This document shows positions 11 through 35,533 of a DNA stretch of 43,491 nt, piece after piece. Under the pieces are notes generated by a model. It searched no databases, had not been told where the DNA came from, and worked only from the letters and a program-made list of their open reading frames with translations. The translations under genes and the position numbers were made by a program. Numbering within the stretch: position 1 is the stretch's first letter; each line of letters begins with the position of its first letter. Source of the DNA: an uncultured Aquificales bacterium (GTDB lineage: Bacteria; Thermosulfidibacterota; Thermosulfidibacteria; Thermosulfidibacterales; Thermosulfidibacteraceae); assembly GCA_964453345.1 (NCBI GenBank), contig CAYVOC010000011.1, positions 1 through 43,491 on the forward strand. The letters run 5' to 3'.

Positions 11-1093
11 TTAAAATGTGCGTATGATTTTATACAGGGTTGTGCGTTGGGCGGGGGTGAAGCCTGCGTCTTTTATGAGTCTTAGTATTTCTTCGAGTTT
101 TAGCCTGTAGGTTACCCCTGCTGCTTTTACCACGTTCTCCTCTATCATGAGGGAGCCGAAGTCGTTGGCGCCGAAAAAGAGGCTCACCTGAGCCACATTG
201 CCGCCCTGGGTCACCCATGAGGCCTGTAGGTTGTTGAAGTTGTCGAGGAATATGCGGGATAGGGCAAGCACTCTGAGGTATAGTGCGCTTGTCGCCTTTT
301 CTATGTGGGATAGGCTTGTGTTTTTGGGCTGGAAGGCCCAGGGGATGAAGGCGGTGAATCCCTTTGTTCTGTCCTGCAGTTCTCTTATCCGGGAGAGGTG
401 TTCGATTATGTCTTCTGGTTTTTCTATGTGGCCGAACATCATGGTGGCGGAGCTTTTTATCCCCAGTTTGTGCGCCGTTTCCATGACCTTTAGCCATTCT
501 TCAACCGTGCACTTGTTGGGGGATACTTTGCTTCTGACCCTTGGGGATAGGATTTCGGCTCCCCCTCCCGGTATGGAGCCGAGGCCGGCCTCTTTTAGCC
601 TTTCCAGGGCCTCTTCGAGGCTTAAGCCGGAGTTATTTGCGTAATAGACTATTTCGGGAGCCGATAGGCCGTGTATGTGTATCTGGGGGAACCATGTTTT
701 GATCTTTTTGAACATTGTGCAGATCCATTCTATGTCAAGCTCAGGGTTGAGTCCTCCCTGTATTAGGATGGAGGTGGCTCCCAAGTTTACCGCTTCCTCT
801 ATCTTTTTGTAGAGGGTTTCGTCGTCTATTACGTAGGCTTCGGGTGAGTCTTTGTCCTTCCAGAAAGCGCAGAATTTGCACTTGCTTGTGCAGATGTTTG
901 TGTAGTTTATGTTTCTGTCTATGAGGAAGGTGACTATTTTTTCGGGAGCCTTTCTTTTTCTGATCTCGTTTGCGAGATACCCCAACTCAATCAGTTGCGC
1001 TTCCTTGAAGAGGGTGAGAGCCTCTTCTTCTGTTATTCTTTTTCCTGAAAGCACCTTGTTTTTAATATGCGAAAGTGAGTTCCGGCACTTCAT
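11..1093 (-). CDS. mqnC: Cyclic dehypoxanthinyl futalosine synthase (radical SAM, menaquinone futalosine pathway)
   Basis: [15 protein letters not shown] CxxxCxxC motif, [37 protein letters not shown]; clustered with mqnA and mqnE. Confidence 0.9.
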
Positions 1094-1883
1094 TTAGCAA
1101 CCCCGATGTGTGCATTTGGTGAAAGTAGGCCTTCAGGCCTTCGATGTATTCCTTTTCAAGGTCAAAGTGCAGGGTTTTAAGATACTCAAGGCACTCTTTT
1201 TCTGTCAGTCCCAGCTCTCTGGATTTTTCCTCCGCTATTTTTGGGTATAGTTTTCTGCTTATTTTTTTGGATTCAAGCAGGGCTTCCCAGCATCTTTTGA
1301 CTTCATCGGGCTGCTTCATATATGCCTCTTTTCTTGTGCACCATAGGGCAAAGACCATGGGTTTTTTTGTTTTTTGCCACCACAGCCCTGCAAGATCGTA
1401 TACGAAGGGCAGGCACCCCCGCTTTTTTACCTTCAGGGCGTCGTCCCCTATGAGGAGTATCCCCATGTATCCGTTGTTGGGGATTCCCTCCTCCATGGAA
1501 AATTCTCTGTAGATGGGCTTTATCCCCATTTCTTTGAAGAGGTGTATCAGGAGGTTTTTTGATGTGAGGGAGGCCTTTGTCAAAAAGACCTCTTTGCCAT
1601 TGAGTTCCTCCATCGGGACCGTGGAGAAGAAGAGGACGCTTTTGACTTCTTTTTCTGCTCCTATGCAGAGTTTGGGAAGTATCAGGTAGTTTTTGTGGTT
1701 CTGGGCGTATTCGAAGGCTGAGACCACGGCCACATCTATGCTGCCATCGGAGAGCATCCTGTTGAGTTCAGAAGGGACCCCCTTGACCACTTCAATATCC
1801 TCTGGAAGCTTCACCAGCCCCTTTTCTATGGCGTAATATACCGGCAGGGTGTTCAAATAGGATATGATTCCCAGCCTAAGCAT
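1062..1883 (-). CDS. mqnA: Chorismate dehydratase
   Basis: ISYLNTLP N-terminus, GVPSELN, SVLFFS, LIGDDAL, DLAGLW, PMVFALW motifs; mqn context. Confidence 0.88.
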
Positions 1884-2961
1884 ACTCCGCCACCAGGTTG
1901 TATAGTGCGTCTCTTTCCGCAGGTATTTTGCCTGCCTCTTTTATGAGCTTGATGATTCTCTTTTTGCTTAGCCCCTGTGGGGATCTGGCGCCGGCTGCAT
2001 GGGTGATCTTTTCCTCAAATACGGTTCCCTCGAGGTCGGAGGCGCCGAAGTTGAGGGATATCTGGGCCAGCCCTTCGCCCAGCATTATCCAGTATGCCTT
2101 TACGTGGGGGATGTTGTTTAATATGAGCCTTGATACGGCTATGGTTTTTAGACAGTCTAAACCTGTGGGGCCTTTTACCTTTATGGATGTGTTTTCAGGA
2201 TGAAAAGCCAGGGGTATGAAGGCCTGAAAGCCTCCGGTCTTTTTCTGGAGTTCCCTGAGCTTTATGAGGTGATCCACCCTCTCCTCAAGGGTCTCTATGT
2301 GGCCGAAGAGCATGGTGCAGTTGGTTTTTATGCCGAGTCTGTGGGCGGTTTCGTGGATTTTTAGCCACATCTGCCAGGAGGTCTTCTGGGGGCACAGCCT
2401 TTTTCTTACTCTATCATTCAGGATTTCGGCTCCGCCTCCGGGCATGGAGTCAAGGCCTGCCTCTTTGAGTTTTTTCAGCACCTCTTCTATGCTCAGTCCC
2501 GATATCTTTGAGAAGTGCTCTATCTCCACGGCGGTGTAGGCCTTTATGTGTATGTGGGGGAACCTTTCTTTTAGCCTTTTCACTATGTTGAGGTAGTATT
2601 CAAAGGGCCAGTCAGGGTGCAGGCCGCTGACTATGTGGAATTCCCTTGCGCCTTCCTGTGCCGCCTCTTCGGCCTTTTTCTCCATCTCCTCAAGGGTATA
2701 TTCGTATCCGCCCTCCTCGCCCTTGGTCTTTGAGAAGGCGCAGAAGGCGCATCTGTTTATGCAGTAGTTGGTGGGGTTTATGTGCCTGTTGACTACAAAG
2801 AATACCCTTTTGCCGTTGATCTTCTCCGCCAAGGTGTTTGCCGCATGGCCGAGGCCGAGGATGTCTTCGCTTTTGAAAAGCTCTATTCCCTCCTCAAGGC
2901 TCAGGGGCCTTCCGGACAGAACCTTTTCAAGGGCCTTCTCTATTTTGGGGTCCTGTATCAT
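1876..2961 (-). CDS. mqnE: Aminofutalosine synthase (radical SAM)
   Basis: [47 protein letters not shown]; start moved to ATG at 2961, which forms an ATGA overlap with the upstream gene. Confidence 0.9.
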
Positions 2962-3902
2962 TCCAGCTTCCTCAGCTTTGCCACAAAGAATCCCCCCACT
3001 TCGTTCTTGTGGGGATACACCCTTATACAGTTTTTCACAAGTTCGTGGAAGACTCTGCCTTCCCATTCCGGTATGGCTTCGCTTGTGTTCAGCCCTTCAA
3101 GCTCTATGGGTTCGGTTATCACATTGTAGCGCTCAAGCAGGTATGAGACCACCCCTTCGTTCTCTTCGGGTGCGAAGGTGCAGGTGGAGTATAGTATCAG
3201 GCCTCCGGGTTTTGCCGCCTTGTATGCGGACACAAGCAGCATCTTCTGGGTTTCGGCAAGCTTTTCGTGGACCCAGTGCCTCCAGTTGTGTATGGCCTTG
3301 TAGCTCTTTCTTATGGTCCCCTCGGCGGAGCAGGGGGCGTCCACAAGCACCATGTCGAAGGTGTCGGGGGCGATCTTTCCAAATCTTCTTCCGTCAAGCT
3401 GGGTGACGCATACGTTTATCACCCCCATCCTCTCGAGGTTGTTGGTGAGGGCCTTCAGCCTTTTTACGCTGACGTCGTTTGCCACTATGCAGCCTCTGTT
3501 TTTCATGTGCTGGGCGAGCTGGGTGGTCTTTGATCCGGGGGCGGCTGCCATGTCAAGAACGAGCATATCCTCAGTCGGCCTCATGACTTCCGGGGGGATC
3601 ATGGAGGAGGCCTCCTGTATGTAAAAGAGGCCGGCAAAGTGCTCCCAAAAGTTGCCCAAGGCCTCTTCTTCAAGATCCTCCTTTATCCAGAAACCCCATC
3701 TGCACCAGGGGATCGGCTCCAGCTCTATGCCCCTTCGGGAAAAGATGTTCAGGAACTCTTCAACCGGTATCTTGATGGTGTTTACCCTTATGCTTTCGGG
3801 AAGGGGGCTTTTTATCGCCTCGATGAATTCTTCCAGTTCGCTTCCGAAGATTGCCCGCCAGCGTTTAAGCAGTCCTTCCGGTATGTCGAGGTCTTCCGGC
3901 AC
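2958..3902 (-). CDS. RsmB/RsmF/NOP2-family RNA m5C methyltransferase (catalytic core only)
   Basis: [31 protein letters not shown] and PEENE motifs; both catalytic Cys present. Confidence 0.88.
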
Positions 3903-22002: not shown

Positions 22003-24140
<2,138 letters not shown>

Positions 24141-24144
<4 letters not shown>

Positions 24145-24869
24145 GGCTTTATCTTTTGCCAAATCTTCTGACCACGGGCAATCTTTTTTTTGGCTTTTAC
24201 TCAATCGTTTCTACTGTTAATGGAGATTACGAAAGGGCTGCATGGGTCATTTTTCTCTCCATGCTCATGGATATCCTTGACGGTAGGGTGGCCCGCATAA
24301 CCAACACCACCAGCCTCTTCGGCGTGAATTACGACTCCCTTGCAGATCTGGTCTCCTTTGGAGTTGCCCCTTCCCTTCTGATCTACAAGTGGGCGCTCAT
24401 GCCCATGGGAAGGGTGGGGTGGCTTGTGGCCTTTCTCTTTATTGCCTGCGGCGCTTTGAGGCTCGCAAGGTTCAACGTTATGGTCACCTCCTCCAGCTCA
24501 AAGGAATTTGTAGGGCTGCCCATACCCGCTGCGGCGGGGCTTCTGGCATCATACTATCTGTTTGTCTCCAAGGGGCTTCTTTTGAAGGATATGCGGGTTT
24601 GTGCCTTTCTGGCCGCCTTCTTCATGTTTACCGCTTCTCTGCTTATGGTGAGCAAATTCTCTTACCTGGCGTTGAAAGGGGGGCTTTCCAGCAGAGCCTC
24701 CTTTGCCCTTATGATCTGCTTTGTCCTTGCCCTTTTTGTGGTGGCCTCTTACCCTTCGCTCTTTCTCTTTCTGGTCTTCTTCCTCTACTACCTTTCCGGT
24801 CCCGCCCTTTACCTGAGGAGGGGGCTGTCCTCCTCTGTTGGGAAGGCGGAGGAGCAGAATGGGATTTAA
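24141..24869 (+). CDS. pssA: CDP-diacylglycerol-serine O-phosphatidyltransferase
   Basis: [40 protein letters not shown]. Confidence 0.93.
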
Positions 24870-25947
24870 ATGCGGCATAGTTGGACTGCCCAATGTGGGG
24901 AAATCCACCATATTCAACGCCCTCTCCGGTGCGTCGGTCCCCGCTGAGAATTACCCCTTCTGCACCGTTGATCCCAATGTGGGGGTGGTTGAGGTTCCGG
25001 ATCCCAGGCTTGAGGTTGTCCGGAGGGTTGCGGGAAGCCCGAAGGCTACTCCCACCTACCTTGAGTTTGTGGATATTGCGGGGCTGGTTAAGGGGGCGAG
25101 CAGGGGCGAGGGGCTTGGAAACCAGTTTCTGTCCCACATAAGGGGCATGGACGCCATAGCCCATGTGGTCAGGTGCTTTGAGGATCCCAACGTCTCCCAT
25201 GTGGAGGGAAGCGTTGATCCCGTTAGGGATGTGGAGATAGTGGAGCTTGAGCTTGTCCTTTCGGATCTTGAGGTTGCCGAAAGGAATCTAAAGAAGCTTG
25301 AGAAGGTGGTGAGATCCGGGAACAGAGCCCTGAGGCCCGAGCTGGAGGCCCTTGGCAAGGCCTACGACGCCCTGAAGGAGGGGACACAGCTCAGGTTCCT
25401 TGAGTGGAGCAAGGAGGAGCTTGAGGCAATAAAGCACTACCAGTTCATAACCCTGAAGCCGGTTCTGTATGTGGCGAATGTTGATGAGGGCGGATTCGAT
25501 TCTCCCGCTGTGGAAAGCTTAAGGAGGCTTGCAGAGGAGAGGGGCGCCGGATTTGTGGTTCTGTGTGGGAAGCTTGAGCAGGAGCTGGGTGAGCTTGAGC
25601 CTGAGGAGAGAAGGGAGTTTCTGGAGCAGCTCGGTCTTGCCGAAAGCGGCATAGAGCGCTTTGTGAGGGAGGGATATAGAATCCTGGATCTTATAACCTT
25701 TTTCACCGCCAATGAGAACGAGGCCAGGGCCTGGACGGTAAAGAGGGGAACCACCGTGATTGAGGCGGCGGGCAAGATCCATACCGATATGCAGAGGGGC
25801 TTTATAAGGGCCGAGGTTGTCTCCTACAGCGATCTTGAACGGGTCGAATCCCTTTCCGCTGCTAAGGAAAGGGGGCTTGTGAGGGTTGAGGGGAGGGACT
25901 ATGTGGTGGAGGATGGGGACCTCATCTACATAAGATTCAAGGTTTAG
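24859..25947 (+). CDS. ychF: Ribosome-binding ATPase YchF
   Basis: [29 protein letters not shown]-terminal TGS domain; start moved to ATG at 24859. Confidence 0.96.
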
Positions 25948-25959
25948 GGAGGGAGCAAG

Positions 25960-27144
25960 GTGGGAGACATTTTCGCCAAATGCTACGCCTTCAAGGATCC
26001 GGATGTTGTCAGAAGCCTGGGTGTATACCCCTACTTCAGGCCCATAGCCACCCAGCAGGGCCCCGTGGTAAAGATAGGGGACAGAGAGCTTATAATGCTC
26101 GGCTCCAACAGCTACCTTGGCCTCACGGACGATCCGAGGGTGAAGGAGGCCGCCAAGAGGGCCATAGACAGATACGGGACCGGCTGTGCGGGATCCCGCT
26201 TCCTCAACGGGACCCTCGATCTGCATATACAGCTTGAGGAGGAGCTGGCCGATTTCCTCGGGAAGGAGGCGGTTCTGCTGTATAGCACCGGCTTCCAGAC
26301 CAACCTGGGGATAATCTCCACCCTTGTTGACAGGGACGATTATGTGATCATTGACAAATCCGATCATGCAAGCATTGTTGAGGGGTGCCGCCTTTCCTAT
26401 GGCGAGGTTAAGAGATTCAGGCACAACGATGTTGAGCATCTTGAGAAGGTGCTTTCCAGACTTGAGCCTGAGGCGGGTAAGCTGATTGTGGTGGATGGCG
26501 TATACAGCATGGAGGGGGACATTGCCCCTGTGCCTGAGATAGTTAAGCTTGCCAAGAAATACGGCGCCAGGTTCATGATTGATGATGCCCACGGCCTTGG
26601 GGTGCTTGGTGAGACGGGGGCTGGCACCGCCGAACATTTCGGGATGACCGACGAGGTTGATATAATAATGGGAACCTTCAGCAAGTCCCTGGCATCCTTG
26701 GGGGGATTCGTTGCCTCCAGCAGGGAGGTGATAGAGTATCTCAAGCACAGATCCAGACCCCTGATCTTCAGCGCCAGCATATCTCCTCCCAATGCGGCGG
26801 CTGCTCTGGAGGCGTTGAGGATCCTGAGGAGCGAGCCTGAGCGCAGAGAAGCCCTCTGGGAGAATACCAGAAGGCTTCAGAAGGGACTCAGGGAGCTTGG
26901 TTTTGACATAGGCAACACCCAGACGCCGGTGATCCCCGTGTATATAGGGGACGACATCAAAACCTTCCAGATATGTATGGCCCTTCATGAGGAGGGGGTT
27001 TTCGTGAATCCGGTGGTGTCGCCGGGTGTTCCCCCCGGTAAGGCTCTGCTCAGGTTGAGCGTTATGGCCACCCACAGGCCGGAGCACATAGATACGGCCC
27101 TTGAAAAACTCGAAAAGGTAGGGAAGAGGTTTGGGATAATATGA
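25960..27144 (+). CDS. spt: PLP-dependent alpha-oxoamine synthase, serine palmitoyltransferase-like
   Basis: [41 protein letters not shown]; directly upstream of a bCerS-like GNAT. Confidence 0.75.
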
Positions 27145-28265
27145 GGATACTTGAGGCTACAGATAAAAGATCCCTGATAGAGTTTGTCAGGGTTCCCTGG
27201 GGGATATATAAGGGGGACGACAACTGGGTTCCGCCCATCGTGGTTGAACTTGTAAACAGCCTTGATAAGAGGCGCAATCCCTTCTTCCAGCACGCCGATG
27301 CGGCCTATTTTTACGCCGTGGATGATAGGGGCAGGCCCTTGGGCAGGATCGCCGCCATCTACGACAGGCTGCACTTCAAATTCAGGCAGGAGAACGTGGG
27401 ATACTTCGGCTACTTTGAATGCGTGGATGACGGGGATGTGGCATCAGCCCTTCTTGAGACGGCTGAGGACTGGCTGAAGAGAAGGGGTGCCGTTTACATG
27501 AGGGGGCCTATAAACCTCAGCATGAACAACGAATGCGGGCTTTTGATTGAGGGGTTTGATGACCCGCCCTGTTTTATGATGCCCTATAATCCCCCCTATT
27601 ATGCGGAGCTTATAGAAGGTTACGGACTGGAGAAGGTGAAGGATCTTTTGGCCTACTGGGTTGATCTCTACTATCAGAGCGATCACAGACAGCTCGTTAA
27701 GTTTGCCGAAAGGGCCGCCAAGAGGCTTTCCGGTTTCAGGGTCAGATCCGTTGACATGAAGCGTTTTAATGATGAGCTTGAGCGTTTCAAAGAGATTTAC
27801 AACGAGGCCTGGGAAAACAACTGGGGCTTTGTTCCCCTGACGGAGGAAGAGATAGAGTATATGGCCAAGAAGATGAAGCCCTTGGTGGTGAGGGATCTTG
27901 TTGTCTTTGCCGAGACCTTGGAGGGGGAGCCGGCCGGGGTTGCCATGGCCATGCCCGACTACAATTTTGTGTTCAAGCGGATGAAGGGGAGTCTCTTCCC
28001 CTTGGGGATCATAAAGTTCTTCATATACAGGAATCACATTCCCAGGATCAGACTCATGGTTCTGGGGGTGAAGAGAAAGTATCGTTTAAGGGGCCTTGAG
28101 TATCTCATGCTGGGGAAGATGTATGATTATGTGATGAAGAGGGGCTACACGGGGGCGGAGTTTTCCTGGATCCTTGAGGACAACGAACCCATAAAGGCCA
28201 TAATCGAGCGGTTTGGTTCCCGCATCTACAAAAGATACAGAATCTATGAGAAGAAGATACGGTAG
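27141..28265 (+). CDS. GNAT-fold protein of the bacterial ceramide synthase (bCerS) type
   Basis: [69 protein letters not shown] overlap with spt. Confidence 0.72.
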
Positions 28266-28764
28266 GTGCGAACCTGAAAGGCGTGGACGCTCGAGCTGGT
28301 TTATCCTCTTCTTTCTTCTTATCGCCATATTTTTCTTCAACTACTTCGGGAGAAAGCTGGGGCAGGTTTCCAATCCTCCCTTTCCGGTGGATGTTGCCCT
28401 CTACGATCATGAGGGCAGGTTGAGACATTTAAGGTTTTCCCGTGGGTTTACGGTGGTGGTTCTTGTGAGCAGAGGTTGCAGTCCCTGCGAAAGGCAGATA
28501 GAGGAGCTAAAAAGGCTTGATGTGGGCTGGGCTAAGTGGATGGTCATCTTCCTGGACGGGCCGGTTCCGAAGGGCATGGGTGAGGGCTTTTTCTCCGTCC
28601 ATCCCAAGGATGTGGAGAGGCTGGTGGAGGCCTTAGGGGTGGAGAGGGTTCCCATTACCTTTATAGTGGACTCATCGGGGCTTATAAGAAGAAGGATAGA
28701 GGGCTACATAGATGCCTCTGATCTTGAGGCCTTTTTGAGGGTTGTGAAGAGATACGGAATTTAG
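28246..28764 (+). CDS. Membrane-anchored thioredoxin-like (TlpA/ResA-like) protein
   Basis: N-terminal TM segment, [13 protein letters not shown]; start uncertain. Confidence 0.7.
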
Positions 28765-28775
28765 GAGGATGCGGG

Positions 28776-29696
28776 ATGAAGAAGCTTTATGACCTTGTGA
28801 TTGTGGGAGCGGGTCCTGCGGGCCTTACCGCCGGGATATACGCTGCCAGGGCCAAGCTGGATGCGGTGATAATTGAGCGTTTCGCCCCCGGGGGACAGAT
28901 AGCCCTGAGCGATTGGGTGGAGAACTATCCGGGCTTTGAGGGCATATCGGGCATGGAGCTTACGGAGAGAATGCGTGCTCAGGCGGAGAAGCTCGGCGTG
29001 AGGTTTATAACGGGAGAGGCCAAGGGGCTTGAGGAATACAGGAATAAGAAGGTCATCTATGTTGATTCTGACTGGTATGAGTCAAAGACGGTTATCGTTG
29101 CAACCGGTGCCTCTCCCAAGGAGCTGGGAGTGGAAGGGGAGAGGGAATTTGTGGGCAGGGGGGTTTCCTACTGCGCCACCTGTGACGGCGCCTTCTACAA
29201 GGGGCTTGAGGTCGCCGTGGTTGGAGGTGGGGATACCGCCGTCCAGGAGGCCATATTTTTGACCAAGTTCGCCTCCAAGGTCTATCTTATCCACAGGAGG
29301 GAGAAACTGCGCGCCGCTCCCATACTGCAGGAGAGGTTGTTCAAGAACGAGAAGATAGAGGTTATCTGGGATACGGTGGTGGAGAGGATTGTGGGAACGA
29401 ATGCGGTTGAAAAGCTTGAGCTGAAAAATGTCAAAACGGGCGAAAAAAAGGAGCTTCCCGTTGCGGGTGTCTTCATCTTCATCGGCATAAGGCCGAACAC
29501 CGCCTTTGTTGAGGATGTGCTTGAGCTTGATGCAAACGGCTTCGTCATCACCGGTGAGAACCTTGAGACCAACATCCCCGGGGTCTTTGCGGCAGGGGAT
29601 GTGAGAAGAAAGAGCCTGCGGCAGGTGATCACCGCCTGTGCCGATGGCGCCGTGGCCGCCTTCCAGGCCCAGCAGTTCATAGAGAGGATGTGTTAG
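28776..29696 (+). CDS. trxB: Thioredoxin reductase
   Basis: [34 protein letters not shown]. Confidence 0.96.
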
Positions 29697-29970: not shown

Positions 29971-30941
29971 TAACCATGGGGGATGCGGCCGGCATAGGCC
30001 CTGAAATCATACTTAAGGCCTACGCCGCAGGGGATCTTGACTGCGCCCTTCCGGTTGTTGTGGGGGACTGCTCGGTCCTTGAATACTACAATAGACTTTT
30101 GGGACTTGGCGTTCCTCTAAAGATGATCTCCGATCCTTCTGAGGCATCCTCCGGAACTCTTTCCGTGATTCAGGTGGGGTCTTTAAGGCCCGGAACCGAT
30201 TTTGAGCCGGGCAGAAGCAGTGCGGCGTGCGGAGAGGCTGTTGTGGAATACATAAAAAGGGCCGTAAAGCTCTGCCTTGAGGGGAAGGCGCTGGCCATGG
30301 TCACAGCCCCCATAAGCAAACATTCCATGCATCAGGCGGGATACTCCTATCCCGGACACACGGAGCTTCTCGCCGAGCTGACGGCCACCGACAACTACGC
30401 CATGATGCTGGTGGGGGGAGGCGTAAGGGTCTCCTTGGTCACAATCCATGTTGCCCTTAGGGAGATTTTCAGCCTGATAACCGAAAACGAGGTGTATCGG
30501 GTTGCAAGGCTAACCGCCCGTGAGCTTGTGAGGCTGTTCGGGTTTGAAAGACCTAAGGTTGCCGTGTGCGGTCTAAATCCCCATGCGGGGGAGGGGGGCG
30601 CCTTTGGAAGGGAGGAGATAGAGGTTATCGCCCCTGCGGTTGAGAGGTTGAGATCCGAAGGGTATGAGGTTTACGGCCCTCTTCCCTCGGACACCCTCTT
30701 CTACTGGCATCTTAAGGGCAGATACGACGCAGTTGTGGCCATGTATCACGATCAGGGGCTGATTCCTGTGAAGCTTGTGGGCTTTGAGGAGGGGGTGAAT
30801 GTGACCCTTGGCCTTCCCATAATCAGAACCTCCCCCGATCACGGAACGGGGTTCGACATAGCGGGAAAGGGTGTCGCCTCGTGCAAAAGCTTGGTGAGCG
30901 CCTACAGGCTCGCCTGTAGCTTCGCTTCTGCTGTCAGGTAG
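29955..30941 (+). CDS. pdxA: 4-hydroxythreonine-4-phosphate dehydrogenase family
   Basis: [38 protein letters not shown]. Confidence 0.93.
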
Positions 30942-32415
30942 CCTTTGGTTTGAGGATCACCACCGCCCTCGGGCACTCCTCTTCGCAGATGCCGCACCCC
31001 TTGCAGTGATCCCTGTCTAAGGTGGGTTTCCCGTTCTCGTCCAGAAGCACCGCCACATCCGGGCAGAAGGTCCAGCAGTTGCCGCATCCGTTGCAGTATC
31101 CGCAGCTGAAGCACCTTGAGGCTTCCCTCTGCAGGTCTTCGAGATTCCCGATTTGCCTTACTCGGGGTGACTTTTCAAAGTAAAAGAGGTTCAGGCTGTC
31201 AAAGCTTATTATTTCCTCCCTGTCCCTTTTGATAGTAGAAGCCATGATGGCTCTGCGGGCGGAGGCCATGGCTTCCGCCACGGTGGACGGGCCGAGTTTA
31301 TAGTCTCCAATGCACTCCGCATCCACCTCATCAAACCTTCTTTTTTGGCCCGTGGCCACTATAACCGCATCGGCCGTTAAGGTTCCTCCCTCCTTCACTA
31401 TCCTTGTTGTCTTCCAGCCCTTCTCCTCTCCGATGACTTCAACCTCTGCAAGTTTTACTTTGATCTTGCCGTTGATCTTTTCGATAAGGGTGCAGGCGGT
31501 TCCGTCCTTGATGGAAAGCCCGAGATCCTTGGCCTCCTCCACCTCCTCCCTGAAGGCGGGCATATCATTTTCACTTTCAACGCACACGAGGGTGACGGAT
31601 CTTCTGTTCTTCAAAAGGCATATGGCCACATCCACGGCAACATTTCCGCCGCCTATCACCACGAAATCCTTCCCTTCGGGAAGCAGACCCTTTGTGTTGT
31701 ATTCCTCAAGAACCCTTATTCCTACAAGTGCCTTTTCCACCCCCGGAATGTCTGGGATCCTCGGCTCAGTGAGCCCTCCCGCAAACACCACCCTGTCGAA
31801 CTCGCTTTTCAAAGCCTCCAGATCCTCGGGGAAGATGCTCCTTCCCACTTCAAATCTCACCCCTATCTCCTCAAGCCTCTTGACGGCTTCCGCAACCAGC
31901 TCCTTGGGAAGCCTGTGCTTGGGAATTCCCCAGTATAGCAGCCCGCCGGGTTCGGTCTTCTCCTCAAACACCACCACCCGGTTCCCCTTCAGGCTTGAGA
32001 ACCATGCATAGGTGAGTCCCGCCGGCCCGGAACCGATTACGGCCACCCTTTCGCCGTCATACCCTTCCTTCGGGGGAAAGAGCTTCTCCTCAAGGATCAC
32101 ATTGCCCAGAAATCCCTCTATTCCCTTAGTGTTTACGGCCTCGTCGTATTCCCCTCTGTTGCAGTGGCTCATGCAGAAGGCCGGGCATACCCGTGATGTT
32201 ATGAAGGGGAAGGGGTTGATGTTCATGATGCTGAGGGCAGCCTCCTTTATCATCCCCTTGAGGATGAGTTCAACCAGAGCCGGCACATCCGTTTCCAAAG
32301 GACAGGCCTTGATGCAGGGGGCGAAGGCGCTTGCAAAGACCGGCTGCTGCTTGCTCCAGGTTCCGGTCTTTATGCGCCTTGTTGTTGAAAAGCTCCTTAG
32401 AAGGGTTATGTCCAT
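30934..32415 (-). CDS. GltD-like FAD/NAD(P) oxidoreductase fused with a 2-oxoacid oxidoreductase delta (2x[4Fe-4S]) subunit
   Basis: N-terminal [38 protein letters not shown]-terminal [13 protein letters not shown] and [12 protein letters not shown]. Confidence 0.8.
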
Positions 32416-32951
32416 GCCCTGACTTCTCCGTAGGCTCTTAGTGCCGCTTTTTTATTCTCCTCAACCTTCTCCTTAACATACTCCTCTATGGCTGAAAGCA
32501 CGGAATCGATCTTCAGAATTCCTGTGGCTCCGGCGAAGGCTCCCACCATCGCCGTGTTCACTATGGGGTATGCAGCCGTTCCGAGTCCTAAGGAGAGGGC
32601 GATGCTTGTGGCGTCCACCGTGTAGAGCCTTCCTCTGGGTATGTCAACCCTCTGCGGGGAGTTTACAAGAACTATTCCCTCTTCCTTAAGCCCCTGGGTG
32701 ACATCCACATCCCTTATCAGGGTGTCGTCCAGCACCACCAGTATGTCCGGATTCCTTATTCCGCATCTTAGGAGTATCGGCTCGTCGTCCACCCTGGTGA
32801 AGGCGGCAACGGGTGCCCCTCTTCTTTCCGCACCGAAGGTGGGGAAGGACTGGACCCACTTGCCTTCCTTGAAGAAGGCTATGGCAAGAAGCCTTGATGC
32901 GACAACCGCTCCCTGTCCGCCACGTCCGTGTATTCTTATCTCAAGCATCAC
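32406..32951 (-). CDS. 2-oxoacid:acceptor oxidoreductase gamma subunit
   Basis: [28 protein letters not shown]. Confidence 0.92.
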
Positions 32952-33484
32952 TCACCGCAGACAACGACTATGGCTGTTGCGGGTCCTCCGATACCCCTGA
33001 GGGAGTGGGGGTATCTCGATTCGTATGAGGCTGTGTCCCCCGGCTCAAGTATCACCCTCTCGTCCTCAACGCATATCTCAAGCTTTCCCTCAAGCAGAAA
33101 GAGGAACTCCTTTCCCTGGTGCTGGAAGAAGACCCTTTCGTCCTCCTCTTTCTCTTCAAACACCACCAGGAAGGCGTTTATGCCCTCCCTCGATGCCAGG
33201 CTTTTGTAGTGATAGCCGGATCTGCTCGGCCCCGTCTTGGGCCTTCTCTCCACATCCTTCCTCTGCATCTTGCGGACGACGTTTATCTTGCCCCTCTGCT
33301 TTTCTCCCATAAGCTCGGATAGTTTAACCCCGTAGGCCTTTGATAGGTTGATGAGGGTGGATATGGAGGGAGTGAACCTGCCCTCCTCGATCTCCCTCAA
33401 GAGCTCTGCACTGATGCCGCACAGCCTTGCGGCCTCCTCCACGGAGAGGCCCTTATCTTCCCTTAGCCTTTTCAGGTTTTTCAT
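32948..33484 (-). CDS. XRE-family HTH + cupin transcriptional regulator
   Basis: LKRLRE..GLS and IEEG..TPSISTL helix-turn-helix; H.G.EF and PH cupin motifs; start moved to ATG at 33484. Confidence 0.88.
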
Positions 33485-33491
33485 ATTTTTC

Positions 33492-33520
33492 AGGATAGCT
33501 GCAGTTTTGTTGAAGTTCAA
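33492..33520 (-). promoter_or_regulatory. Putative sigma70 promoter for XRE-gamma-delta/GltD operon (leaderless)
   Basis: TTGAAC (33520-33515), 17 nt, TATCCT (33497-33492), 7 nt, ATG; no SD present. Confidence 0.6.
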
Positions 33521-33538
33521 GAGGGGGTTGGGTATAAT
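33510..33538 (+). promoter_or_regulatory. Putative sigma70 promoter for the alpha-beta subunit operon
   Basis: TTGAAG (33510-33515), 17 nt, TATAAT (33533-33538). Confidence 0.7.
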
Positions 33539-33554
33539 TTCGAAGGGATGGATC

Positions 33555-34676
33555 ATGAGAAGGGTTCTTACTGCAGCTGAAGCCGTTGCCTATGCTGTGA
33601 AGGCCGTAAAGCCGGGGGTGATTTCCGCCTATCCCATCACGCCCCAGACCCATGTGATAGAGAAGCTGGCCGAGTTTGTGGAGACCGGAGAGCTCGATGC
33701 TGATTTTGTGAGGGTTGAGGCTGAGATTTCCGCCATCTCGGTGGTTGCTGGAAGCGTGATTCAGGGGGTAAGGGCCTTTACCGCCACCTCGTCCCACGGA
33801 TTGGTGTATATGCACGAGCTTCTCCACTGGTGCGCAGGCGGGAGACTACCCATTGTTATGGCGGTTGCCAACAGGGCCCTGGGAGCGCCTTGGAATATCT
33901 GGTGCGATCAGCAGGATATGCTCTCCCAGAGGGATACCGGATGGATGCAGATCTTCGCCAGAAACGCTCAGGAGGCCCATGATCTTATCCCCGTGGCCTA
34001 CCGGGTGGCGGAGAGGGTCTTTCTGCCTGTGATGGTGGGCTTCGACGGCTTTATACTCTCCCACACGGCTGAGCCGGTGGAGGTGGTGGAGGATCTGGAT
34101 GGGTTCCTTCCGCCTCTGGATAACCCCCTCATGCTCAGCCATCATCAGCCCTTTACTCTGTGGCCCATACTGGAGCCCGGCGTTTATCACCTTCAGAGAA
34201 AGGATCTCTTTGAGGATCACAAAAGGGCCCTTGAGGAGTGGAAGAGATCCCTTCAAGCCTGGAAGGAACTTTCCTCAAGGGAGTATGGAGTAGTTGAGGC
34301 CTTCTACCTGGATGATGCAAAAAGCGCCTTTCTGTGTGTGGGTTCCATTGCGGATACGGCCCTTGAGGCGGTGAAGCTTTTGAGGAGGGAAGGGGAGAGG
34401 GTGGGGCTCATATTGTTGAGGTTGTTCAGACCCTTCCCCTCCGTTGATCTTGCCGAGCTTGTGGTTGACCTTGAAAGGCTGATGGTTCTTGACAGGGCGG
34501 TCTCCTGGGGGGCGGAGGGGATAGTCTCTCAGGAGGTGAGGAACGCCGTTGCGGGGGCCTGTCCCGTTCAGTGCTGCGTGGTCTCCATGGGGGGCAAGGA
34601 TGTGTTTCCGGAGGATATAGCGGAGCTGTATTACAGGGGTATGGGCGTTCCCGAGGGGGTGGTGCTTTGGAGCTGA
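33555..34676 (+). CDS. 2-oxoacid:acceptor oxidoreductase alpha subunit (PorA-like)
   Basis: AYPITPQT, FTATSSHGL, NRALGAPWNIWCD, DGFILSHT, FRPFP; start moved to ATG at 33555. Confidence 0.9.
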   Translation: MRRVLTAAEAVAYAVKAVKPGVISAYPITPQTHVIEKLAEFVETGELDADFVRVEAEISAISVVAGSVIQGVRAFTATSSHGLVYMHELLHWCAGGRLPIVMAVANRALGAPWNIWCDQQDMLSQRDTGWMQIFARNAQEAHDLIPVAYRVAERVFLPVMVGFDGFILSHTAEPVEVVEDLDGFLPPLDNPLMLSHHQPFTLWPILEPGVYHLQRKDLFEDHKRALEEWKRSLQAWKELSSREYGVVEAFYLDDAKSAFLCVGSIADTALEAVKLLRREGERVGLILLRLFRPFPSVDLAELVVDLERLMVLDRAVSWGAEGIVSQEVRNAVAGACPVQCCVVSMGGKDVFPEDIAELYYRGMGVPEGVVLWS

Positions 34677-35533
34677 AAAATTTGCCCTATGAGGGGCTGG
34701 AGCCGGGACACCTTGCCTGTGCGGGGTGCGGTGCCGCCCTCGCCATGCGCATGGCCGTTAAGGCCCTTGGCGAGAAGATCAGGGTGGTTATCCCGGCAAG
34801 CTGCTGGAGCGTGATAGCGGGAAGGCATCCGGATGCTTCCTTGAAGGTTCCGGTGGTCCACAGCACCTTCGAGGTTGCTCCAAGCATCGCCACGGGTATC
34901 CGCAGGGCCTTGAGGAGGCTGGGACAGGACGATGTTAAGGTGATGGTGTGGGCCGGAGACGGTGCCACCTACGACATAGGCTTTGCGGCTCTATCCGCTG
35001 CCGCCGAGAGGAACGAGGACATCATATACGTGTGCTACGACAACGAGGCCTACATGAACACGGGGATACAGAGAAGCTCATCCACCCCCTTCGGGGCGTG
35101 GACCACCACAACCCCCACAGGCAAGTCCGAGCAGAAGAAGGACATTGTTTCCATCATGCTTGACCACAGGATCCCCTACCTTGCAACGGCCACGGTGGCT
35201 TTCCCCGAGGATATGGTGGAGAAGTTCAAAAAGGCTGCATCCGTTAAGGGGTTCAGGTTCATTTTGGTTCTGGCCCCCTGTCCCACCGGGTGGGGCATGC
35301 CGGAGAACAAAACGGTTCTGGCTTCAAGGCTCGCCGTTGAGACCGGGATCTTTCCCCTTGTTGAGGCCGAGCATGGCGATCTTAGGGTGACCCACATGCC
35401 CAAGTTTATGCCCGTTGAGGAGTATCTCAAGATACAGCGCAGATTCAGGGGAATTTCAAAGAGGGAGATTGAAAGAATAACCCTTCAGGTTGAGGCCATG
35501 TGGAGGCGGCTTAAATCTCCTTCTCCATCCTGA
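34667..35533 (+). CDS. 2-oxoacid:acceptor oxidoreductase beta subunit (ThDP-binding, PorB-like)
   Basis: ACAGCG, GDGATYDIG, DNEAYMNTG.Q.S..TP, PCPTGW; TTG start inferred at 34667. Confidence 0.9.
   Translation: MELKNLPYEGLEPGHLACAGCGAALAMRMAVKALGEKIRVVIPASCWSVIAGRHPDASLKVPVVHSTFEVAPSIATGIRRALRRLGQDDVKVMVWAGDGATYDIGFAALSAAAERNEDIIYVCYDNEAYMNTGIQRSSSTPFGAWTTTTPTGKSEQKKDIVSIMLDHRIPYLATATVAFPEDMVEKFKKAASVKGFRFILVLAPCPTGWGMPENKTVLASRLAVETGIFPLVEAEHGDLRVTHMPKFMPVEEYLKIQRRFRGISKREIERITLQVEAMWRRLKSPSPS

Follow-up and report, generated by a model that had tools for sequence, protein, structure and literature searches.

A 43,491-nucleotide stretch of the genome of an uncultured Aquificales bacterium of the phylum Thermosulfidibacterota (GenBank contig CAYVOC010000011.1; the window, hereafter, at its full length) carries two overlapping plus-strand genes, one for an alpha-oxoamine synthase at 25960..27144 and one for a GNAT-type acyltransferase at 27141..28265. 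We conclude that this pair quite probably encodes the first two enzymes of bacterial ceramide synthesis, a known three-enzyme route in which serine and an acyl thioester give 3-ketosphinganine; N-acylation and reduction of this product then yield dihydroceramide. The case draws on the genes themselves, their homologies, their conservation within the phylum and their co-occurrence in distant genomes.

A probable serine palmitoyltransferase of the Bacteroidota type

The first gene begins with GTG and encodes a pyridoxal phosphate-dependent alpha-oxoamine synthase of 394 residues, with the catalytic Lys242 in a GTFSKS motif. The initial annotation of the window had read it as a serine palmitoyltransferase (Spt), and the assignment to a Bacteroidota/myxobacterial-type Spt is now well supported. 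Twelve NCBIfam families matched the protein, the best being NF047600 (SerpalmtaseCFB) at 598.4 bits, against 408–422 bits for the BioF/Kbl models (BioF 408, Kbl 415). Among 57 sequences matched in a PDB sequence search, the SPT entries 3a2b and 8guh came top at 471 bits, aligning without gaps over residues 4–390; BioF/Kbl reached 333 bits, 138 below SPT, followed by further classes at 291, 273 (cysteate acyltransferase) and 230 bits. We then compared 26 active-site and core residues of Sphingobacterium multivorum SPT, taken from PMC10196870 and PMC13692747 (papers are cited by PMC number throughout, for the excerpts available to us) and numbered through the gapless PDB alignment. The synthase keeps 25 of them, GTFSKS included, whereas BioF, Kbl and HemA keep 12–13. 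Its sole departure is an isoleucine at Met271 of the S. multivorum enzyme, and the serine-contacting residues Asn52, Gly80, Ser81, His138 and Ser243 are all intact.

A midpoint-rooted tree of 60 rows, from which matches with fewer than 300 aligned residues, duplicates and S. multivorum SPT were left out, places the synthase with the Spts rather than with BioF, Kbl or HemA. The 14 Spts of the phylum form one clade (100/100), with branches that follow its three families. This clade joins one containing Bacteroidota (97/95), whose rows are not assayed enzymes, and BioF, Kbl and HemA lie across the midpoint root. The closest relatives beyond the phylum, as far as the tree shows, belong to Bacteroidota, Parabacteroides and Mucilaginibacter among them; we take these to be mesophiles. 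Among named Spts of other phyla, the closest, at 65–66% identity, are those of Deferribacter autotrophicus and D. abyssi (P0273, P0277), presumably vent thermophiles; P0273 keeps 25 of the 26 residues. The genome's only other alpha-oxoamine synthase, on contig C55, scores above the BioF cut-off (487.7 vs 426.45 bits), and bioA and bioD homologs are also present. Profile scores, PDB match, retained residues, tree placement and this separate BioF all bear out the original identification.

Several points weigh against it. The synthase falls below the NF047600 cut-off (598.4 vs 640 bits), a model built for the CFB group, and none of the 31 genomes searched contains a match above that cut-off. The residue set is biased by lineage: the Spts of E. 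coli and Sphingomonas keep only 17 and 16 of the 26, so the set marks a subgroup as much as a function. In the tree, the node joining all Spts, those of E. coli and Sphingomonas included, has low support (95/72), and no row represents S. multivorum SPT.

A GNAT of the bacterial ceramide synthase family

The second gene begins with ATG and encodes a tandem-GNAT N-acyltransferase of 374 residues, whose membership of the bacterial ceramide synthase (bCerS)/YghO family is well supported. The protein is 35% identical to YghO of E. coli BL21 over its full length (379 columns, E 7e-83; 5.5e-79 on the genome search), nothing else in the genome matches YghO, and the protein falls within a published orthologue filter (E ≤ 1e-30, coverage ≥ 50%; PMC11334938) against YghO. 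The N-acetyltransferase of a Sphingomonas cerR-acp-spt-lptFG cluster is 33% identical (E 3e-65). YghO itself is given in PMC9386255 as orthologous to Caulobacter CC_1154. A structure model from a 119-row alignment (pLDDT 94.9) has tandem GNATs as its top Foldseek matches, at TM scores near 0.6. Full-length homology to YghO and to the Sphingomonas cluster gene, with a GNAT fold in the model, thus supports the bCerS identity claimed at the outset.

Some observations count on the other side. YghO, which we used in place of the assayed Caulobacter bCerS, is described in PMC9386255 only as a protein that "might be" the N-acyltransferase. Neither the GNAT nor YghO is named by any NCBIfam model, and some genomes carry two or three members of the family. 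None of the 39 Foldseek matches listed for the model is titled a ceramide synthase, and a PDB sequence search with the GNAT returned two chance-level rows and no close relative.

Two unusual family members were seen along the way. P0022, at 638 residues, is 40% identical over 100% of the query and has about 260 extra residues with no Pfam name. A Clostridia genome (L053:4884-7279) carries two bCerS-like genes in tandem, with an Spt-type gene elsewhere in the same genome.

Conservation of the pair

Across a sample of 18 genomes of the phylum, full-length spt occurs in 14 and bCerS in 15 (one partial, one split). In 12 of the 18 they adjoin each other with their order kept, so their pairing is not chance. 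The junction lies at the same position in genomes G002 and G003, and short gaps separate the genes in other phylum genomes. Several exceptions fall at contig ends or in incomplete assemblies. In G001 a contig end truncates spt at residue 91, which rules out a real loss of the pair there. In G012 spt and bCerS lie near the ends of two different contigs. In G013 the truncated end of bCerS is the one that would face spt, and the end of ychF, the conserved upstream neighbor, is on another contig with no spt after it. G006 and G017, 71% and 73% complete, lack the pair and also lack ychF. The split bCerS, in G005 (C13:926-2022; L017), is read in two frames covering residues 1–134 and 136–374, through either a sequencing error or a pseudogene.

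One genome weighs against reading function from position. In G010 (C27:53912-56242 and C37:10206-11378; L058, L059) the break in the run falls precisely between spt and bCerS: bCerS, followed by trxB, an S4 gene and pdxA, stands after a BioF-like paralog, and spt is on the other contig. Because the GNAT adjoins a BioF-like paralog here, adjacency alone proves little. Sliding identity was even and neither synthase resembles an spt/bioF chimera, and a rearrangement or mis-assembly may account for the arrangement. Beyond the phylum, we fetched 33 distant loci with the GNAT; among the matches listed, an Spt-type gene is adjacent in 14 and a CerR-like short-chain dehydrogenase/reductase (SDR) in nine. 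Overall, the ceramide gene set is apparently phylum-wide and vertically inherited in Thermosulfidibacterota.

A candidate CerR elsewhere in the genome

The initial annotation noted that the window holds neither a CerR gene nor one for a dedicated acyl carrier protein (ACP), which is true of the 49 window open reading frames we scanned. A search of the genome, however, finds a CerR candidate on contig C15: the best match of E. coli CerR lies at G000:C15:14251-15192, with 25.5% identity. We built a CerR profile whose only members were nine SDRs encoded beside spt-bCerS in other phyla. The C15 protein scores 149 bits on it, against 78.5 for the next SDR of the genome, 178 for E. coli CerR and 143 for Sphingomonas CerR. 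The SDRs on C42, C19 and C40 were considered as CerR and set aside at no more than 86 bits; that on C42 is of the nucleotide-sugar epimerase type.

The C15 reductase is present in all 18 phylum genomes; its ortholog in Thermosulfidibacter takaii is BAT71768 (54%). Outside the phylum we sampled 93 genomes, each from a different family, of which 30 carry bCerS and 63 do not. A C15 homolog occurs in 25 of the 30 positive genomes and in 6 of the 63 negative ones, a Fisher p of 2e-12 that is overstated, being uncorrected for kinship and genome size. In 14 of the 25 genomes with both genes, the coordinates listed place them no more than about 4 kb apart. Two points stand against the assignment: the C15 protein is only 25–26% identical to the CerRs of E. 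coli and Sphingomonas (E 3e-13 and 2e-15 within this genome), and these values are far from the 1e-30 filter of PMC11334938, where the database size differs. On balance, we find it likelier that the C15 reductase is the third pathway gene, CerR, and that the product is a reduced dihydroceramide rather than an oxidised ceramide.

Proposed pathway and head-group candidates

From this gene set we propose the following order of events. Spt, by its close homology to known enzymes, would condense L-serine with a long-chain acyl thioester, either acyl-CoA or housekeeping acyl-ACP, to give 3-ketosphinganine. The GNAT would attach a second, amide-linked chain, and the unlinked CerR-like protein of C15, judging by profile and co-occurrence, would reduce the ketone to give dihydroceramide. 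Which of these final two steps, acylation and reduction, comes first is disputed even in Caulobacter (PMC11087976). More speculatively, an Aur1-like PAP2 enzyme encoded on contig C13 might then move a phospho-head group onto dihydroceramide.

This PAP2_3 membrane protein (G000:C13:15482-16321; L152:1171-2013) scores above the PF14378 cut-off, at 75 bits. Its gene is present in all 18 phylum genomes and, outside the phylum, in 15 of the 30 bCerS-positive genomes against 1 of the 63 negative ones; in three of those 15 (G021, G024, G053) it adjoins bCerS or CerR. The motifs FPSGH and HRYHY..D, which we take to be the catalytic motifs of PAP2_3/Aur1-like proteins, are conserved in the 17 aligned rows. 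The protein falls far short of NF052609, the model for phosphoinositol dihydroceramide synthase (BT_1522), at 38.4 bits against a cut-off of 480, and it had no match in the PDB sequence search. The evidence suggests a candidate ceramide head-group transferase, with phospho-dihydroceramides as products; the protein could still be a lipid phosphatase instead.

Other genes bear on the identity of the head group. A stand-alone gene resembling PIP synthase (G000:C10:5463-6044) is present in 16 of the 18 phylum genomes. A MIPS gene lies with an IPCT/DIPPS gene at G000:C42:2418-4906 and, given that neighbor, may serve di-myo-inositol phosphate; production of both inositol lipids and di-myo-inositol phosphate is possible. 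The genome also has a PgpA gene, an enzyme required for phosphatidylglycerol as well. We looked for a ceramide kinase and found no DAGK_cat match above the Pfam cut-off in the genome, and the genome's single PLD protein, considered as a head-group enzyme, is NucT-like. Searches with the E. coli queries did not find a specialised ACP and acyl-ACP synthetase (AcpR and AasR): they returned one ACP at 34% identity, adjoining an SDR on C12, and adenylate-forming enzymes at 23–25%, none of them near spt.

Alternative readings

The alternative that survives best keeps the pathway and changes its main product. Spt would mostly use alanine, glycine or another amino acid, and the cell would make 1-deoxyceramides or related amide lipids. 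We consider this unlikely, as the serine-contacting set is intact and the conserved Aur1-like enzyme would need the C1 hydroxyl, which 1-deoxyceramides do not have.

Somewhat less probable again is that only Spt and bCerS act, leaving an oxidised (3-keto) ceramide as the end product. No reductase adjoins the pair, the C15 protein has low identity to known CerRs, and 5 of the 30 bCerS-positive outside genomes have no C15 match; moreover, a Caulobacter cerR mutant accumulates oxidised ceramide (PMC11087976). Yet the C15 protein fits the profile of CerR neighbors, occurs throughout the phylum sample and tracks bCerS outside it, and in Bacteroidota it is normal for the pathway genes to be unlinked (PMC11334938). 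The "oxidised ceramides" of the initial annotation rested on the absence of CerR from the window, and, with a CerR-like gene found elsewhere that tracks bCerS, that claim is probably wrong.

We regard it as very improbable that the synthase is a BioF/Kbl paralog and the GNAT an unrelated acyltransferase placed beside it by accident. The NCBIfam BioF and Kbl models do match the synthase (E < 1e-120), the T. takaii homolog BAT72053 is annotated as 8-amino-7-oxononanoate synthase, and the GNAT adjoins a BioF-like gene in G010. Against this, the BioF/Kbl models score 180–190 bits below the Spt model, the dedicated BioF on C55 exceeds its own cut-off, tree placement and residue set both favor Spt, and spt and the GNAT are neighbors at 14 of the 33 distant loci, among the matches listed. 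Finally, a cysteate acyltransferase (CFAT) making a sulfonolipid would share the SPT scaffold (PMC13692747) and would suit a lineage of sulfur-rich vents (PMC13457557), but we give it hardly any weight, since SPT reaches 471 bits in the PDB search and the CFAT entry 28eh 273, and the synthase has Ser81, Asn117 and Ala274 of SPT where CFAT has Ala82, no counterpart of Asn117, and Lys280 (PMC13692747, with the positions paired by us).

Host, heat and significance

Both proteins have their best named homologs in T. takaii ABI70S6 (DSM 17441), the synthase in BAT72053 (88%) and the GNAT in BAT72052 (72%), and the consecutive accessions suggest that the genes are adjacent there too. The genome studied here comprises 1.51 Mb in 64 contigs, has 52% G+C and is 99.9% complete. 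The initial description of the organism as thermophile-like and lipopolysaccharide-making holds up: reverse gyrase scores above its cut-off, homologs of lpxA, lpxB, lpxC, lpxD and waaA are in the genome, and lptA and lptB are in the window. The IVYWREL fraction, 0.444 over 954 long open reading frames, corresponds to about 80 °C by a rough formula. Members of the phylum are described as vent chemolithoautotrophs and reach about 12.5% in vent samples from the Mediterranean (PMC13457557).

Phosphosphingolipids of inositol, ethanolamine and glycerol types account for up to 40% of bacterial lipids in Milos sediments at 40–80 °C, where a membrane-stiffening role was proposed and the source was tentatively given as Bacteroidetes (PMC5572230). 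That paper cites sphingolipids from three thermophilic bacteria, so their occurrence in thermophiles is no novelty; a heat-stabilising lipid, also suggested in the initial annotation, had likewise been hypothesised in print (PMC5572230). The main text of PMC13457557 does not mention Milos. bCerS is common beyond the phylum, as in the 30 of 93 outside genomes, and the control genome of Thermotoga maritima gave no match to the Spt model. Spt-like genes have already been reported from 40 phyla, anaerobes included (PMC11334938). We found no published sphingolipid study of Thermosulfidibacterota, and the main text of PMC11334938 does not contain "Thermosulfidibacter"; the supplementary phylum tables of that paper and of the paper defining bCerS may list the phylum. 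The chemistry and the enzymes are thus known, and what is added is the gene set in a thermophilic vent phylum with a cultured type strain.

We offer a broader proposal only tentatively, as one that is possible but doubtful: that Thermosulfidibacterota, a deep-branching vent phylum, received an entire phosphosphingolipid pathway (Spt, bCerS, CerR and the Aur1-like enzyme, possibly with phospho-inositol or -ethanolamine head groups) from their last common ancestor, use the lipids at about 70–80 °C and are one source of the orphan phosphosphingolipids of hydrothermal sediments. If so, T. takaii would become a model of how bacteria use sphingolipids to adapt to heat. As this cultured relative carries the pathway, both the thermal membrane role and the Milos source can be tested. 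Thermostable Spt and bCerS proteins could also help structural work, the GNAT having no close relative in the PDB sequence search. In T. takaii, the spt gene (BAT72053) now carries the annotation of a biotin enzyme.

Gene neighborhood

Both open reading frames, their lengths, their ATGA stop/start overlap (27141..27144, plus strand) and all nine motifs quoted in the initial annotation were confirmed in the sequence: YPYFR at residue 23, GSNSYLGL at 48 and an 11-residue motif at 75 of Spt, and WVPP at 29, NPFF at 46, GRIAA at 68, MPYNPPYY at 147, NWGF at 227 and WILEDN at 343 of bCerS. A GGAGG at 25948..25952, 7 nt before the GTG, is the likely ribosome-binding site of spt. The pair lies in a closely spaced plus-strand run of ilvD, ilvB, ilvN, ilvC, psd, pssA, ychF, spt, bCerS, a thioredoxin-like gene, trxB, an S4 protein gene and pdxA. 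Immediately upstream is ychF (24838..25947; TIGR00092, 445 bits), which is 5' of spt in relatives too. The downstream neighbors at 28213..29696, also 3' of bCerS in relatives, encode a thioredoxin-like membrane protein (PF13098, a weak 21 bits) and TrxB (TIGR01292, 410 bits). Scans for promoters and terminators gave counts at chance level (9 vs 8.6 and 19 vs 15.4), so assignment to an operon relies on spacing and conserved order only.

The genes psd and pssA, for phosphatidylethanolamine synthesis from serine (23536..24869, plus strand; NF003685 at 205 bits and TIGR00473 at 147 bits, both above cut-off), stand two genes 5' of spt, an order repeated in G010. Serine-derived glycerolipid and sphingolipid genes may be co-expressed. 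Elsewhere in the window, ferredoxin oxidoreductase genes lie on both strands around a cupin regulator at 30934-35533, with a gamma subunit and an FAD/delta fusion on the minus strand, alpha and beta subunits on the plus strand, and no subunit above its equivalog cut-off. Positions 11-3066 hold mqnC and mqnE of the futalosine menaquinone route, separated by a VitK2_biosynth gene.

Comparison with known systems

The synthase resembles S. multivorum SPT (3A2B, 8GUH) and the Bacteroidota/delta-proteobacterial subgroup in its gapless alignment, its GTFSKS motif and its 25 of 26 shared residues, and, as in that group, we found no specialised ACP nearby. It differs in having isoleucine for Met271, in scoring below the CFB cut-off and in belonging to a thermophilic vent anaerobe. 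In sphingolipid-producing Bacteroidota the three genes lie apart (PMC11334938), whereas here spt overlaps bCerS.

In Caulobacter crescentus and E. coli BL21 the genes are spt (CC_1162), cerS (CC_1154, equivalent to yghO, ECD_02850) and cerR (CC_1164, equivalent to ECD_02852). As there, all three enzyme types are in the genome, and one profile fits both the reductase and E. coli CerR. Unlike there, cerR is unlinked, and we found one ACP-like match, no clear AasR ortholog and a single LptF/G pair with no second set. According to PMC11324152, cerS is always in a different operon; here, spt and cerS are in one gene run.

Bacteroides thetaiotaomicron makes its inositol sphingolipid with the MIPS BT_1526, the PIP synthase BT_1523, the PgpA-type phosphatase BT_1525 and the Aur1-like PI-dihydroceramide synthase BT_1522 (PMC9246714). 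Although the four inositol-route genes are scattered in our genome and its Aur1-like protein scores far below NF052609, genes of all four kinds (MIPS, PIP-synthase-like, PgpA and PAP2_3/Aur1-like) are present here as they are in B. thetaiotaomicron.

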